DNA of 49,379 bases from Escherichia coli (GTDB lineage: Bacteria > Pseudomonadota > Gammaproteobacteria > Enterobacterales > Enterobacteriaceae), in the NCBI RefSeq assembly GCF_003334315.1, contig NZ_QOWR01000034.1; one strand, written 5' to 3'. The notes beneath the pieces are model-generated. The model saw nothing but the letters and a program-made list of their open reading frames with translations, had not been told where the DNA came from and did no database searches. The position numbers and the translations under genes were made by a program. Shown one piece after another: positions 3,815-35,564 of this stretch (within the stretch, counting starts at the first letter, position 1; each line of letters starts with the position of its first letter).

Positions 3815-3912
3815 GCCTGATGCGCTATGCTTATCAGGCCTACATAGTCCCTGCAATATATTGAATTAGCAAGGTTTTGTAGGCCGGATAAGGCGTTCAC
3901 GCCGCATCCGGC
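3815..3912. repeat. BIME: two inverted REP elements between convergent torZ and cmoB
   Basis: GCCTGATGCGCTATGCTTATCAGGCCTACA (3815-3843) and GTAGGCCGGATAAGGCGTTCACGCCGCATCCGGC (3879-3912) match the REP consensus. Confidence 0.8.
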
Positions 3913-3927
3913 AGTAATACCAGACCT

Positions 3928-7818: not shown

Positions 7819-9591
7819 ATGCGTACAGAATATTGTGGACAGCTCCGTTTGTCCCACGTGGGGCAGCAGGTGACTCTGTGTGGTTGGGTCAACCGTCGTC
7901 GTGATCTTGGTAGCCTGATCTTCATCGATATGCGCGACCGCGAAGGTATCGTGCAGGTATTTTTCGATCCGGATCGTGCGGACGCGTTAAAGCTGGCCTC
8001 TGAACTGCGTAATGAGTTCTGCATTCAGGTCACGGGCACCGTACGTGCGCGTGACGAAAAAAATATTAACCGCGATATGGCGACCGGCGAAATCGAAGTG
8101 CTGGCGTCCTCGCTGACTATCATCAACCGCGCAGATGTTCTGCCGCTTGACTCTAACCACGTCAACACCGAAGAAGCGCGTCTGAAATACCGCTACCTCG
8201 ACCTGCGTCGTCCGGAAATGGCTCAGCGCCTGAAAACCCGCGCTAAAATCACCAGCCTGGTGCGCCGTTTTATGGATGACCACGGCTTCCTCGACATCGA
8301 AACTCCGATGCTGACCAAAGCCACGCCGGAAGGCGCGCGTGACTACCTGGTGCCTTCTCGTGTGCACAAAGGTAAATTCTACGCACTGCCGCAATCCCCG
8401 CAGTTGTTCAAACAGCTGCTGATGATGTCCGGTTTTGACCGTTACTATCAGATCGTTAAATGCTTCCGTGACGAAGACCTGCGTGCTGACCGTCAGCCTG
8501 AATTTACTCAGATCGATGTGGAAACTTCTTTCATGACCGCGCCGCAAGTGCGTGAAGTGATGGAAGCGCTGGTGCGTCATCTGTGGCTGGAAGTGAAGGG
8601 TGTGGATCTGGGCGATTTCCCGGTAATGACCTTTGCGGAAGCAGAACGCCGTTATGGTTCTGATAAACCGGATCTGCGTAACCCGATGGAACTGACTGAC
8701 GTTGCTGATCTGCTGAAATCTGTTGAGTTTGCTGTATTTGCAGGTCCGGCGAACGATCCGAAAGGTCGCGTAGCGGCTCTGCGCGTTCCGGGCGGCGCAT
8801 CGCTGACCCGTAAGCAGATCGACGAATACGGTAACTTCGTTAAAATCTACGGCGCGAAAGGTCTAGCTTACATCAAAGTTAACGAACGCGCGAAAGGTCT
8901 GGAAGGTATCAACAGCCCGGTAGCGAAGTTCCTTAATGCAGAAATCATCGAAGACATCCTGGATCGTACTGCCGCGCAAGATGGCGATATGATTTTCTTC
9001 GGTGCCGACAACAAGAAAATTGTTGCCGACGCGATGGGTGCACTGCGCCTGAAAGTGGGTAAAGACCTTGGTCTGACCGACGAAAGCAAATGGGCACCGC
9101 TGTGGGTTATCGACTTCCCGATGTTTGAAGACGACGGTGAAGGCGGCCTGACGGCAATGCACCATCCGTTCACCTCACCGAAAGATATGACGGCTGCAGA
9201 ACTGAAAGCTGCACCGGAAAATGCGGTGGCGAACGCTTACGATATGGTCATCAATGGTTACGAAGTGGGCGGTGGTTCAGTACGTATCCATAATGGTGAT
9301 ATGCAGCAGACGGTGTTTGGTATTCTGGGTATCAACGAAGAGGAACAGCGCGAGAAATTCGGCTTCCTGCTCGACGCTCTGAAATACGGTACTCCGCCGC
9401 ACGCAGGTCTGGCATTCGGTCTTGACCGTCTGACCATGCTGCTGACCGGCACCGACAATATCCGTGACGTTATCGCCTTCCCGAAAACCACGGCGGCAGC
9501 GTGTCTGATGACTGAAGCACCGAGCTTTGCTAACCCGACTGCACTGGCTGAGCTGAGCATTCAGGTTGTGAAGAAGGCTGAGAATAACTGA
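7819..9591 (+). CDS. aspS: Aspartate--tRNA ligase
   Basis: 590-aa ORF; class II aaRS motifs (e.g. [31 protein letters not shown]); matches recalled AspS. Confidence 0.97.
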
Positions 9592-9708
9592 TATGACTCA
9601 AATACACGAAATCATTCGCGTTGCATCGAGGCGGCAACTGAGTGAACTCCCATGAGCATAGATAACTATGTGAATGGGATGAGCGAAGGCAGTCAACGAA
9701 GAGGCAGC

Positions 9709-10161
9709 GTGAAGGATAAAGTGTATAAGCGTCCCGTTTCGATCTTAGTGGTCATCTACGCACAAGATACGAAACGGGTGCTGATGTTGCAGCGGCGTGA
9801 CGATCCCGATTTCTGGCAGTCGGTAACCGGCAGCGTGGAAGAGGGTGAAACCGCGCCGCAAGCTGCCATGCGCGAAGTAAAGGAAGAGGTCACCATTGAT
9901 GTTGTCGCTGAACAACTGACCTTAATTGACTGTCAGCGCACGGTAGAGTTTGAAATTTTTTCACATTTACGTCATCGCTATGCGCCGGGCGTGACGCGTA
10001 ATACGGAATCATGGTTCTGTCTTGCGCTTCCGCACGAGCGGCAGATCGTTTTCACTGAACATCTGGCTTACAAGTGGCTTGATGCGCCTGCTGCGGCGGC
10101 GCTCACTAAGTCCTGGAGCAACCGGCAGGCGATTGAACAGTTTGTAATTAACGCTGCCTGA
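9709..10161 (+). CDS. nudB: Dihydroneopterin triphosphate diphosphatase (Nudix hydrolase)
   Basis: Nudix box [21 protein letters not shown]. Start set to GTG 9709 (AAGAGG about 6 nt upstream) to give the recalled 150 aa; an in-frame ATG at 9652 would add 19 aa. Confidence 0.8.
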
Positions 10162-10189
10162 ACAGGCAGGGCTATCTGGAGATATTTTT

Positions 10190-10930
10190 ATGGCAGGTCA
10201 TAGTAAATGGGCCAACACCAGACATCGTAAAGCTGCGCAGGATGCTAAGCGCGGTAAAATCTTCACTAAAATCATTCGTGAGCTGGTAACCGCGGCTAAG
10301 CTGGGCGGTGGCGATCCGGACGCTAACCCGCGTCTGCGTGCGGCGGTGGATAAAGCACTGTCTAACAACATGACCCGTGACACACTGAACCGCGCAATTG
10401 CACGTGGTGTGGGCGGTGATGATGATGCAAACATGGAAACCATCATCTACGAAGGTTACGGTCCTGGCGGCACGGCAATCATGATTGAATGTCTGTCTGA
10501 CAACCGCAACCGTACCGTTGCTGAAGTGCGTCATGCATTTAGCAAATGTGGCGGTAACCTCGGTACTGATGGTTCCGTTGCCTATCTGTTCAGCAAAAAA
10601 GGCGTGATCTCCTTCGAGAAAGGCGATGAAGACACCATCATGGAAGCAGCACTGGAAGCAGGTGCTGAAGACGTTGTGACCTATGATGACGGCGCGATTG
10701 ATGTCTACACTGCATGGGAAGAAATGGGTAAAGTGCGCGACGCTCTGGAAGCGGCAGGTCTGAAAGCAGACAGCGCGGAAGTTTCCATGATCCCGTCTAC
10801 CAAAGCTGATATGGATGCAGAAACCGCACCGAAACTGATGCGTCTGATCGATATGCTGGAAGATTGCGACGACGTGCAGGAAGTTTACCATAACGGTGAA
10901 ATCTCTGATGAGGTCGCAGCGACTCTCTGA
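10190..10930 (+). CDS. yebC: YebC/PmpR (TACO1) family probable transcriptional regulator
   Basis: 246-aa ORF, highly conserved family; directly upstream of ruvC. Confidence 0.93.
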
Positions 10931-12981: not shown

Positions 12982-13995
<1,014 letters not shown>

Positions 13996-13999
13996 GTCG

Positions 14000-14320
14000 G
14001 ATTGGTCGCTCGCGCCGCATCCGAAATTGGCAGTGTGCCTGATGCGACGCTATTCGCGTCTTATCCGGCCTACCAGAGATAGCGAACCGTAGCTCGGATA
14101 AGGCGCTCGCGACGCATCCGACATTGGCAGTGTGCCTGATGCGACGCTATTCGCGTCTTATCCGGCCTACGAGAGATAGCGAACCGTAGGTCAGATAAGG
14201 CGCTCGCACCGCATCCGACATTGGCAGTGTGCCTGATGCGACGCTGTTCGCGTCTTATCAGGCCAGCCAGAGATAGCGAACCGTAGGTCGGATAAGGCGC
14301 TCGCGCCGCATCCGACAAAT
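14000..14320. repeat. Tandem BIME cluster: three 97-bp units made of alternating REP palindromes
   Basis: GCATCCGA recurs at 14017, 14114, 14211 and 14308 (exact 97-bp period); each unit holds GCCTGATGCGACGCT...GCGTCTTATC(C/A)GGCC and CGGATAAGGCGCTCGCG REP motifs. Confidence 0.85.
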
Positions 14321-14335
14321 GTGTTCAGCGATAGA

Positions 14336-15121
14336 TTAGCTGGCCTGCTTTTTCATCATACTGAGAATAAATAACAGTGCCGCACATAGCACCACCGACG
14401 GACCCGCCGGCGTATCGTAAACCGCGGAAAAGGTTAAACCGCCAGTCACTGCCACCATCCCCACCAAAACAGCGACACCAGCCATCTGTTCCGGCGTGCG
14501 GGCAAAGCGACGCGCAGTAGCAGCAGGAATAATCAGCAACGAAGTAATAATCAACGCACCGACAAATTTCATCGCTACACCAATCGTCAATGCCGTCACC
14601 AGCATCAATAACAATTTCACGCGCTGTAATTTCACACCATCAACAAACGCCAGATCCGGGCTAATCGTCATCGACAGCAAATTGCGCCATTGCCAGAACA
14701 AAATAGCCACCACGATGACCACGCCAATGGCGATGGAGATGAGATCTTCCGGCGTCACTGCCAGCAAATCACCGAACAAGTAAGCCATCAAATCAACACG
14801 AATATTAGACATCAGACTAACGACCACCAGGCCCAGCGACAGGGCACTGTGCGCCATAATCCCTAATAACGTGTCGATCGCCAGCTGTGGACGCTTCTCC
14901 AGCCATACCAGACCGCCCGCCAGCAGCAGCGTAACGGCAATCACCGCATAGAATGGATTCACGTCCAGCAACAAACCAAACGCGACGCCAAGTAATGAGG
15001 CATGAGCCAGCGTATCACCGAAATAAGACATACGACGCCAGACTACAAACGAACCCAGCGGACCCGCGGCACAGGCGAGCATGATCCCGGCTAACCAACC
15101 GGGAAATAATAATTCAATCAT
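14336..15121 (-). CDS. znuB: High-affinity zinc ABC transporter permease
   Basis: 261-aa polytopic membrane protein; start overlaps the znuC stop (ATGA at 15118-15121). Confidence 0.95.
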
Positions 15122-19402: not shown

Positions 19403-19436
19403 GTAGGCCGGATGTGGCGTTTTCGCCGCATCCGGC
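19403..19436. repeat. Single REP element between lpxM and pykA
   Basis: GTAGGCCGGATGTGGCGTTTTCGCCGCATCCGGC matches the REP consensus. Confidence 0.75.
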
Positions 19437-19443
19437 AACGTAC

Positions 19444-35241: not shown

Positions 35242-35328
35242 AACATTTAAGCTGATGACCACCGCGCTTTTTATTGACCATTTTGCACGCAAACTGGAAA
35301 ACCTGGCGTCGTCATCTATTCTTAAAGG

Positions 35329-35431
35329 GCAAGGCAACTAAGCCTGCATTAATGCCAACTTTTAGCGCACGGCTCTCTCCCAAGAGCCATTTCCCTGGAC
35401 CGAATACAGGAATCGTGTTCGGTCTCTTTTT
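35329..35431 (+). ncRNA. sdsR: Small regulatory RNA SdsR (RyeB), sigma-S dependent
   Basis: Recalled SdsR sequence matches (GCAAGGCAACTAAGCCTGCATTAATGCC...CGGTCTCTTTTT). A sigma-S-type -10 (TCTATTCTT, 35315-35323) sits upstream and a GC stem plus U-run ends at about 35431. Confidence 0.75.
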
Positions 35432-35564
35432 ATCTGTTAAAAGCCAGAAGCATTTCCTTCGCTGACTTTATAGTCAACCATAACACACACTCTACTGTCT
35501 GAGTCCAGCGTTTTTTAACATTCTTGTTAAGATTATGTGATCTTTAGCGCGGAGGAAAATATTG

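Follow-up and report, generated by a model that had tools for sequence, protein, structure and literature searches.

We analysed a 49,379-nucleotide stretch of Escherichia coli DNA (contig NZ_QOWR01000034.1 of assembly GCF_003334315.1; hereafter the window) and found that the spacer between its genes aspS and nudB is a 127-bp mobile repeat of the ERIC type, also called IRU or RU-1. The region is a K-12-type aspS-nudB-yebC-ruvC locus, and positions 9400-10200 of the window are 100% identical to E. coli MG1655. NudB is the Nudix-family enzyme dihydroneopterin triphosphate diphosphatase, and the domain PF00293 is precomputed for all relatives. The repeat inserted into the first codons of nudB and separated the old start codon from the rest of the gene. 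We propose that it supplied the Shine-Dalgarno (SD) sequence and start codon that nudB would use now, and that the old start codon opens a short relay open reading frame (ORF) whose translation would keep nudB coupled to aspS. Taken as a whole, this account is probably right. All positions are those of the window, and the coordinates of the features are collected in Table 1.

The spacer resembles ERIC elements in sequence, structure and genomic behaviour. It aligns without gaps to the 127-nt ERIC/RU-1 consensus, with 99 identical positions (78%) and an alignment score of 71, whereas shuffled sequences had a mean score of 2.3 and a maximum of 12. ERIC elements have been described as being approximately 127 bp long, with a 7-bp terminal inverted repeat (TIR), TA termini with a target duplication, and a stem-loop (PMC2229807). 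The spacer has this length and its transcript is predicted to form a long stem-loop. The alleles L009, L043 and P0002 have the TIR TATACAC...GTGTATA with TATA on both sides, and in the window the left TIR end has decayed to AAATACAC (6 of 7 positions). Other copies of the repeat are dispersed in E. coli–for example, between queA and acpH, between pepB and iscX, and between pmbA and cybC–with a median of 4 blastn-detectable places per genome, and the copy at nudB is present in some strains and absent from others. Its location is not intergenic, because the insertion point lies after codon 2 of the ancestral nudB gene, and since intragenic exceptions are documented (PMC2759123) its membership of the ERIC family stands.

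A second model also detects the element. The Rfam family RF02818 (V_AS5, "Vibrio antisense RNA AS5") matches positions 9600-9723 from end to end (model positions 1-129 of 129, E = 6.5e-9) with the same hairpin architecture, and the element belongs to a subtype with a centre, CATAGATAACTATG, that resembles this Vibrio-type model. Unlike the members of V_AS5, the element scores 44.5 bits, below the gathering threshold of 96, which leaves it outside that family, and the match reflects shared ERIC ancestry and not the Vibrio small RNA family. V_AS5 itself seems to be a model of an ERIC-type repeat and not of a dedicated small RNA.

Comparison among genomes reveals the history of the insertion. We compared 5426 complete genomes of E. 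coli, and the element is present at the nudB site in 3753 of them (69%), including those of K-12, BL21 and O157, and each copy is at least 97.8% identical. The remaining 31%, among them Nissle 1917, CFT073 and ST131, lack exactly 125 bp, which correspond to positions 9599-9723 of the window, and the site is also empty in most other genera. Empty alleles have the sequence ...AAT AAC TGA T ATG GCT TAT AAG CGT CCC..., in which the ATG of a 147-aa NudB lies 1 nt past the aspS stop codon. An arrangement of the form stop-N-ATG-NNN-(Y/F)K is found in 68 of 83 loci (80 nudB loci from a scan of GTDB species-representative genomes, plus three E. coli records; in all, 77 loci stand for GTDB species and 6 are E. 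coli records or alleles), so we take it to be the ancestral state of nudB. The old ATG lies at position 9593 of the window, and the ancestral frame resumes after the inserted block at TAT 9724. The ERIC element thus inserted at a TA/TATA site just after codon 2 (between GCT and TAT in ...TGA T ATG GCT TAT AAG CGT...), parting the nudB start codon from the remainder of the gene. In two repeat-free E. coli records (L002:1685-1720 and L003:1685-1720) we noticed that RefSeq/PGAP annotates a 150-aa nudB from an ATA codon inside aspS (WP_077249130.1 and WP_077626310.1; ATA ACT GAT ATG GCT TAT...); evidently these alleles start at an ATG located three codons downstream, which gives 147 aa as in 68 other loci.

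A repeat at the same site occurs in part of the genus Escherichia (E. coli, E. albertii and E. whittamii) and also in Salmonella, Pseudenterobacter, UBA3516 and a single clade of Citrobacter, and protein searches add filled sites in C. amalonaticus, Phytobacter, Scandinavium and Dryocola. When the E. coli element is compared with that of Citrobacter, Pseudenterobacter or UBA3516, the sequence identity is 87-91%, as against 59-65% at third-codon positions in the flanking sequence; either the element is strongly constrained or it postdates the splits between the species. The filled sites are scattered on a tree made from the flanking sequences. Because this tree follows taxonomy, we rejected a transfer of the filled allele from species to species along with long flanks. 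Two database entries are unusual. One (L075, CACSKA010000003.1), labelled Chryseobacterium sp. 18061, contains an enterobacterial aspS-ERIC-nudB locus whose NudB is 84% identical to that of E. coli, and this record is probably contaminated or mislabelled. The other is an E. coli genome with a second aspS-nudB stretch, which is plasmid-borne.

The signals for starting nudB translation at its present position appear to have come with the repeat. The queA-acpH copy ends in GAAGAGGCAGTTTGAAGGATGAAGTGTATA and the pmbA-cybC copy in GAGGCAGTGTGAAGGATGAAGTGTAAA, and common to both is a GAGG with (G/T)TG 4 nt downstream. The SD-like GAGG and the GTG are therefore native to this ERIC subtype, and we rejected an origin of the two signals in place after the insertion, because the sister copies have GAGG plus (G/T)TG AAG GAT. 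Expression of nudB would have been rescued because this subtype, in the given orientation and phase, carries a GAGG with an in-frame GTG 4 nt on (GTG 9709), to which a second pair, AAGGA and GTG 9721, may be added. The present K-12 NudB protein would consequently begin inside the repeat, at GTG 9709 according to annotation: the repeat encodes its first five residues, M-K-D-K-V (codons 1-5), and codon 6 onward (YKRPVS...) is ancestral nudB sequence. At another locus, queA-acpH of E. coli CFSAN061770 (L089:151-290), an ERIC of the same subtype has the annotated acpH ATG overlapping its terminal TATA (TATATG), and the ribosome-binding region of acpH may be repeat-derived as well.

Following a TGA at 9643-9645, the nudB frame contains the candidate start codons ATG 9652, GTG 9670, ATG 9679, GTG 9709 and GTG 9721; GTG 9709 is 117 nt from the aspS stop. 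On the minus strand of NC_000913.3, where a coordinate equals 1958341 minus the window position, ATG 9593 corresponds to 1948748, ATG 9652 to 1948689, ATG 9679 to 1948662, GTG 9709 to 1948632 and GTG 9721 to 1948620. A sequence-only reading of the window had located ATG 9652, ATG 9679, the motif AAGAGG and GTG 9709, all of them correctly, had left out GTG 9670, and had favoured GTG 9709 over the ATGs upstream. That preference holds up: GTG 9709 is the curated start and has the best SD, the interval 9652-9708 shows no coding constraint, and both ATGs are deleted in Salmonella. Pairing energies with the anti-SD of 16S rRNA are -5.8 kcal/mol for GTG 9709, -2.3 for ATG 9652, -1.9 for GTG 9670 and -2.0 for ATG 9679. 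The length of 150 aa that the same reading had given for a start at 9709 agrees with RefSeq, which places the start there in every filled genome inspected (including NC_000913.3, b1865, 1948180-1948632), and with five PDB entries that have a 150-residue NudB chain; the window product is identical to residues 1-150 of 2o1c, 2o5w and 5u7e. This start is already known in every curated resource. The PDB chains are recombinant constructs built on the annotation and do not show the native N-terminus, and we found no experimental translation initiation site (TIS) or N-terminal data for nudB in TRAINSPOTTER, the Meydan preprint or Nakahigashi 2016. The 169-aa ORF that starts at ATG 9652 in the ORF listing is a mechanical longest-ORF call, and its residues 20-169 match residues 1-150 of 2o1c (E = 2e-98).

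For evolutionary comparisons we used 21 filled alleles, comprising 18 full-length alleles and three from Salmonella (a fourth Salmonella allele, from mainstream S. enterica, was left out of this count). The 44 substitution events in positions 9652-9708 among the 18 full-length alleles consist of 12 synonymous, 31 nonsynonymous and one stop-related change, and their distribution over the three codon positions is 15:14:15 (P = 0.21). Positive controls, which were pieces of true nudB sequence of equal length, gave synonymous to nonsynonymous ratios of 27:10 and 18:5, with third positions favoured and none of 3000 shuffles as extreme. Since the controls are strongly positive and the upstream interval lacks any synonymous excess, 9652-9708 is not under coding selection. 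ATG 9679 is replaced by ACG in UBA3516, by AAG in Dryocola and by GTG in Scandinavium, and mainstream S. enterica has no in-frame start codon upstream of its equivalent of GTG 9709. By this comparison, ATG 9652 and ATG 9679 are best seen as untranslated repeat sequence and not as part of NudB. They would be present at all because the ERIC repeat inserted into the 5' end of the ancestral gene, and conserved because they lie opposite each other in the apical stem of the repeat.

The alternative is that some NudB is made as a 169-aa isoform from ATG 9652, by termination and reinitiation where the stop codon of the relay ORF overlaps this ATG (ATGA); the tryptic peptide SIDNYVNGMSEGSQR, encoded upstream of 9709, is specific to this form. 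We consider such an isoform very unlikely. Position 9652 is a start codon in all 18 full-length alleles (17 ATG and one GTG), the overlap with the relay stop is kept in 17 of them (16 ATGA and one GTGA), the frame is open, with one in-frame 3-nt deletion (in P0024), and ribosomes do reach the region, as footprints over the relay ORF indicate. The hairpin and the high overall conservation of the element (87-91%) account for this conservation, however, and the open frame in nine of the alleles is partly an effect of how they were ascertained. A test on nine alleles had given a weak synonymous excess (10 of 20 changes, P = 0.024), but it was gone once nine more full-length alleles were added, and we regard it as small-sample noise. 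In addition, ATG 9652 has no usable SD, lies in the apical stem, and belongs to a segment that is deleted in all the Salmonella alleles.

The old start codon remains in use: it opens a translated frame of 20 codons. ATG 9593 is invariant in the 21 filled alleles, although nowhere in the region is variation greater than in the three codons that follow it, and the sequence TGA-N-ATG at the end of aspS occurs in all 21 filled alleles and in 68 empty loci, a proximity of stop and start such as is seen in translationally coupled pairs. Exactly this frame is listed in Table S4 of a published reanalysis of retapamulin TIS and footprint data (PMC11188072; NC_000913.3 1948688-1948748, minus strand), with retapamulin TIS counts of 7 in MG1655 and 33 in BL21, footprint counts of 805 and 1130, respectively, covering 92-100% of the ORF, and a dN/dS of 1.64. 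In our substitution test the relay frame showed no constraint on its peptide (9 synonymous and 26 nonsynonymous changes, P = 0.63). We therefore rejected the idea that it is a conserved small protein or leader peptide, because both this ratio and the published dN/dS value lack any sign of purifying selection.

In Salmonella the relay frame has a different relationship to nudB. S. enterica and S. diarizonae have lost the apex of the repeat, and their relay ORF has 34 codons and a TGA stop that shares bases with the nudB GTG (GTGA); in S. arizonae the stop comes 7 nt farther along. This GTGA overlap would deliver ribosomes straight to the nudB start, as a direct relay by termination and reinitiation. 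In one Salmonella allele (L095:401-955, from the Logan assembly of SRR11028689) the frame opened by the ancestral ATG continues across the remnant of the repeat and into nudB, giving an ORF of 184 aa in which the repeat contributes an insert of 37 residues close to the N-terminus.

The sense transcript of the repeat is predicted to fold into a long imperfect hairpin with a minimum free energy of -52.3 kcal/mol (z = -5.5), as compared to -39.6 kcal/mol (z = -2.8) for the antisense strand. The lower stem, formed by 9613-9627 and 9701-9715, buries the last base of the AAGAGG motif (SD1) and GTG 9709, with 9704-9713 paired to 9615-9624. In an alignment of 11 alleles 97.3% of the cells in the predicted stems are paired, four pairs have changed on both sides, and the lower stem is retained in every allele, whereas control structures slid along the alignment are 24-50% paired. 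Many of the changes preserve G.U pairs, which suggests that the structure forms in the sense RNA. When the relay ORF is held single-stranded in the folding model, the predicted probability of being unpaired rises from 0.25 to 0.62 for SD1 with GTG 9709, and from 0.37 to 0.85 for the second site, AAGGA (SD2) with GTG 9721. These predictions suggest a mechanism in which ribosomes finishing aspS would reinitiate at ATG 9593 and translate the left arm of the hairpin, and this traffic would melt the stem over SD1 and its GTG. The ancestral translational coupling of nudB to aspS would be preserved by this route, and translation of nudB would depend on the relay ORF, for which the presence of ribosomes on that ORF and the predicted unmasking give indirect support. 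Of this account, the history of the insertion, the non-coding nature of the upstream ATGs, the ribosome occupancy of the relay ORF and the conserved stem that masks the start are shown; the dependence of nudB on the relay ORF and the choice between the two GTG codons are inferred.

Several points weigh against this account. The patchy distribution of filled sites could be due to a single old insertion followed by precise losses, to repeated insertion at a TATA hot spot, or to conversion of short tracts. Nine of the 18 full-length alleles were chosen from 169-aa protein calls, a choice that selects for an open frame and not for a particular ratio of synonymous to nonsynonymous changes. Some reinitiation may occur at position 9652, in view of its start codon in every full-length allele and the ATGA or GTGA overlap in all but one of them. 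The footprints over 9593-9655 could come in part from ribosomes that are terminating on aspS, and the unmasking of the nudB start is a thermodynamic prediction of modest size. The preference for GTG 9709 over GTG 9721 derives from annotation and the better SD, and the PDB chains are constructs. Lastly, the equivalent of GTG 9709 has been lost in Scandinavium (GCG, L092) and in Dryocola (GTA, L096).

These two losses bear on a check that the sequence-only reading had proposed, an alignment of NudB N-termini across species. The comparison confirmed that the upstream ATGs are non-coding, and it did not show GTG 9709 to be universal: the codon is GTG in 18 and ATG in one of the 21 filled alleles, making a start in 19, and the GAGG of SD1 is kept in 17. 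Because the codon is lost, Scandinavium and Dryocola must use another NudB start, equivalent to either 9721 or 9652. By contrast GTG 9721, which lies in the TIR, is invariant in all 21 alleles, with AAGGA 4 nt upstream in 16 of them. It is a serious rival to 9709 and may be used as well.

It is conceivable that GTG 9721 is the main NudB start or an equal one, giving a 146-aa protein that is nearly the ancestral 147-aa M-A-YKRPVS form, with GTG 9709 secondary; on balance we think this unlikely. SD2 is strong in both of the lineages without a start at 9709 and in three others whose SD1 is weakened, the 9721 site is predicted to be the more accessible of the two whether the relay ORF is folded or open, and variation in NudB codons 2-5 (KDKV) is mostly nonsynonymous. 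The invariance of GTG 9721 may be structural, though, since the codon is part of the TIR and of an invariant basal helix, and a gap of 4 nt is short for the AAGGA portion of an SD sequence. The stronger GAGG belongs to GTG 9709, which most alleles retain as a start, and it is this codon, not 9721, that the relay stop overlaps in S. enterica and S. diarizonae. No allele lacks both SD1/9709 and SD2/9721, a pattern that is not significant (estimated P ~0.3). The comparative data do not separate the two sites, with 9709 having the better SD and the curated annotation, and 9721 being the sole universally conserved start; we favour the call at 9709. In a subset of E. coli genomes (L085-L087), an A to G change at position 9712 makes NudB K2E (WP_001443602.1), and it also converts AAGGA to GAGGA, a stronger SD-like sequence before GTG 9721.

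Our crude consensus scan of positions 9300-10300 found no terminator-like site and no sigma-70-like site, which bears out the statement of the earlier reading that the 117-bp spacer lacks a terminator. That reading had also suggested that nudB may be co-transcribed with aspS. We reach the same conclusion because the ancestral gap between the genes is 1 nt and promoter and terminator signals are lacking; moreover, aspS-nudB-yebC-ruvC has been treated as one operon, with differential translation, on the basis of mRNA-seq and ribosome profiling (PMC4378010). The gene nudB would thus still be transcribed together with aspS after the insertion. A promoter in or near the spacer that expresses nudB independently of aspS is highly unlikely: 117 nt is long enough to hold one, and some MITEs (miniature inverted-repeat transposable elements), such as Correia elements, do bring promoters (PMC3184786), but the scan (which was crude, and a promoter inside aspS is possible) revealed no sigma-70-like site, a single nucleotide separates the genes in the ancestral arrangement, which is still common, and the literature treats them as one operon (PMC4378010).

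A different role for the repeat would be in mRNA stability or processing, with an RNase E site exposed by ribosome-dependent refolding, and different lifetimes for the aspS and nudB-yebC-ruvC parts of the transcript as the result. Reviews of the work of De Gregorio et al. (2005) state that ERIC elements in Yersinia are co-transcribed and act in an orientation-dependent manner, unmasking a site for RNase E within the 3' TIR (PMC2229807, PMC10969869). Differential expression of the genes of this operon (PMC4378010) fits such a role, as does the contrast between conservation of the element and that of the flanking third positions. As the repeat is absent from 31% of E. coli genomes and from most genera, any function of this kind must be dispensable. 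We doubt that stability is its principal role, although it may be a possible one, and it could act alongside the translational account given above.

Table 1. Coordinates of aspS, nudB and the features of the repeat between them.
Feature	Position	Strand	Description
aspS (aspartate--tRNA ligase)	7819..9591	+	Upstream operon gene; TGA stop 9589-9591; from the ORF listing and RefSeq
Relic/relay ORF	9593..9655	+	20 codons encoding MTQIHEIIRVASRRQLSELP, then stop; runs through the left arm of the repeat; TGA 9653-9655 overlaps ATG 9652 (ATGA)
Predicted long imperfect RNA hairpin	9595..9733	+	Sense transcript of the repeat
ERIC/IRU/RU-1 miniature inverted-repeat element	9601..9727	+	Reverse complement of the consensus given in Table 1a of PMC2759123
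Probable decoy ATG of the 169-aa ORF	9652..9654	+	In the apical stem of the repeat; SD pairing -2.3 kcal/mol
Second probable decoy ATG	9679..9681	+	On the opposite side of the apical stem
AAGAGG Shine-Dalgarno sequence (SD1)	9699-9704	+	4 nt ahead of GTG 9709; in the right arm of the repeat
nudB coding sequence as curated	9709..10161	+	150 aa, GTG start; RefSeq and PDB 2o1c
Second possible initiation site	9712..9723	+	AAGGA 9712-9716 and GTG 9721-9723; 146 aa (M-YKRPVS...)

ERIC/IRU/RU-1 elements were reportedly described by Sharples & Lloyd in 1990, by Hulton et al. in 1991 and by Wilson & Sharp in 2006. The copy at nudB is like them in being a hairpin-forming, 127-bp sequence with 78% gapless identity, a 7-bp TIR and TA/TATA flanks, and in being multicopy, filled or empty among strains, and co-transcribed with its neighbours. 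It is unlike a typical ERIC in having split the opening codons of a conserved housekeeping gene, and in being much better conserved across genera than neutral sites are. Its closest parallels are the intragenic fusions formed by ERIC elements and by Rickettsia palindromic elements (Delihas 2007, PMC2759123), in which, as with MKDKV here, residues encoded by a repeat join a conserved protein, and the 184-aa Salmonella allele that reads the whole remnant in frame is of the same kind. Those fusions keep the start codon of the host gene and add an internal or terminal peptide, whereas at nudB the repeat would replace the SD and the start codon, with the old start demoted to a separate short ORF.

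Translational coupling by termination and reinitiation, or by unmasking of a structured ribosome-binding site (RBS), is exemplified by trpE-trpD and by the coat and replicase genes of RNA phages. The nudB locus resembles coupled pairs in the stop-N-ATG between aspS and the relay ORF in all alleles, and in the GTGA overlap between the relay ORF and nudB in Salmonella. It would resemble unmasking systems in having the downstream RBS paired, in the predicted fold, with a segment that upstream ribosomes must cross. Unlike in classic coupling, the intermediate ORF is a by-product of a transposon insertion, and its peptide is unconstrained (dN/dS 1.64).

ERIC elements, their polymorphism among strains, and in-frame intragenic ERIC fusions are all known. 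Literature searches for ERIC together with aspS, or for nudB together with aspS, returned nothing relevant, though Wilson & Sharp 2006 and Sharples & Lloyd 1990 may list the copy. The gene nudB is not among the intragenic ERIC fusion loci in PMC2759123, a 2024 review of MITEs does not mention Shine-Dalgarno sequences or start codons, and the relay ORF appears in the literature as an uninterpreted row of a supplement (PMC11188072). The evolutionary anatomy of the nudB start, with an SD and a start codon donated by an ERIC element and the old start surviving as a relay ORF, seems to be undescribed.

We also observed some other features in the window and in NudB. The small RNA pair SraC/RyeA and SdsR/RyeB is located at 35291-35435 on the minus strand and 35332-35431 on the plus strand, with full Rfam scores of 175 and 114 bits. 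Arrays of matches to the Rfam families naRNA4 and ES036, on both strands, lie at 13995-14358, 3836-3926 and 19406-19443, and are most likely REP/BIME-type palindromic repeats. A 164-aa NudB variant with a frameshifted C-terminus (P0012) represents a cluster of 164 member sequences, and this frameshift could be either a recurrent sequencing error or a real allele.

The origin of the nudB start explains two artefacts of annotation. One is the spurious 169-aa NudB produced by longest-ORF callers, which accounts for thousands of database entries (one 169-aa cluster has 2719 member sequences), and the other is the 150-aa model, with its ATA codon inside aspS, that PGAP forces onto repeat-free alleles. 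The relay ORF is a caution that intergenic small ORFs that are positive in ribosome profiling need not be genes for small proteins. The locus provides a clean, polymorphic case of a MITE in the first codons of a gene whose expression would have been rescued by signals borne on the element, and of an old start turned into an upstream ORF that is neutral at the peptide level. Filled and empty strains of E. coli constitute a natural experiment on translational coupling and on the masking of an RBS. More tentatively, we suggest as one possibility that, after an RBS and start codon carried by an ERIC element replaced the initiation region of nudB, a conserved folate-pathway gene, the old start has persisted over tens of millions of years as a relay maintaining coupling to the essential gene aspS, and that the element may be under strong selection (87-91% identity, whereas neutral sites have about 60%) because the ratio of aspS to nudB expression is set by it. 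If this is true, ERIC elements of this subtype, one of which also abuts the acpH start, would be portable cassettes for translation initiation, a role that is unlisted for bacterial MITEs.

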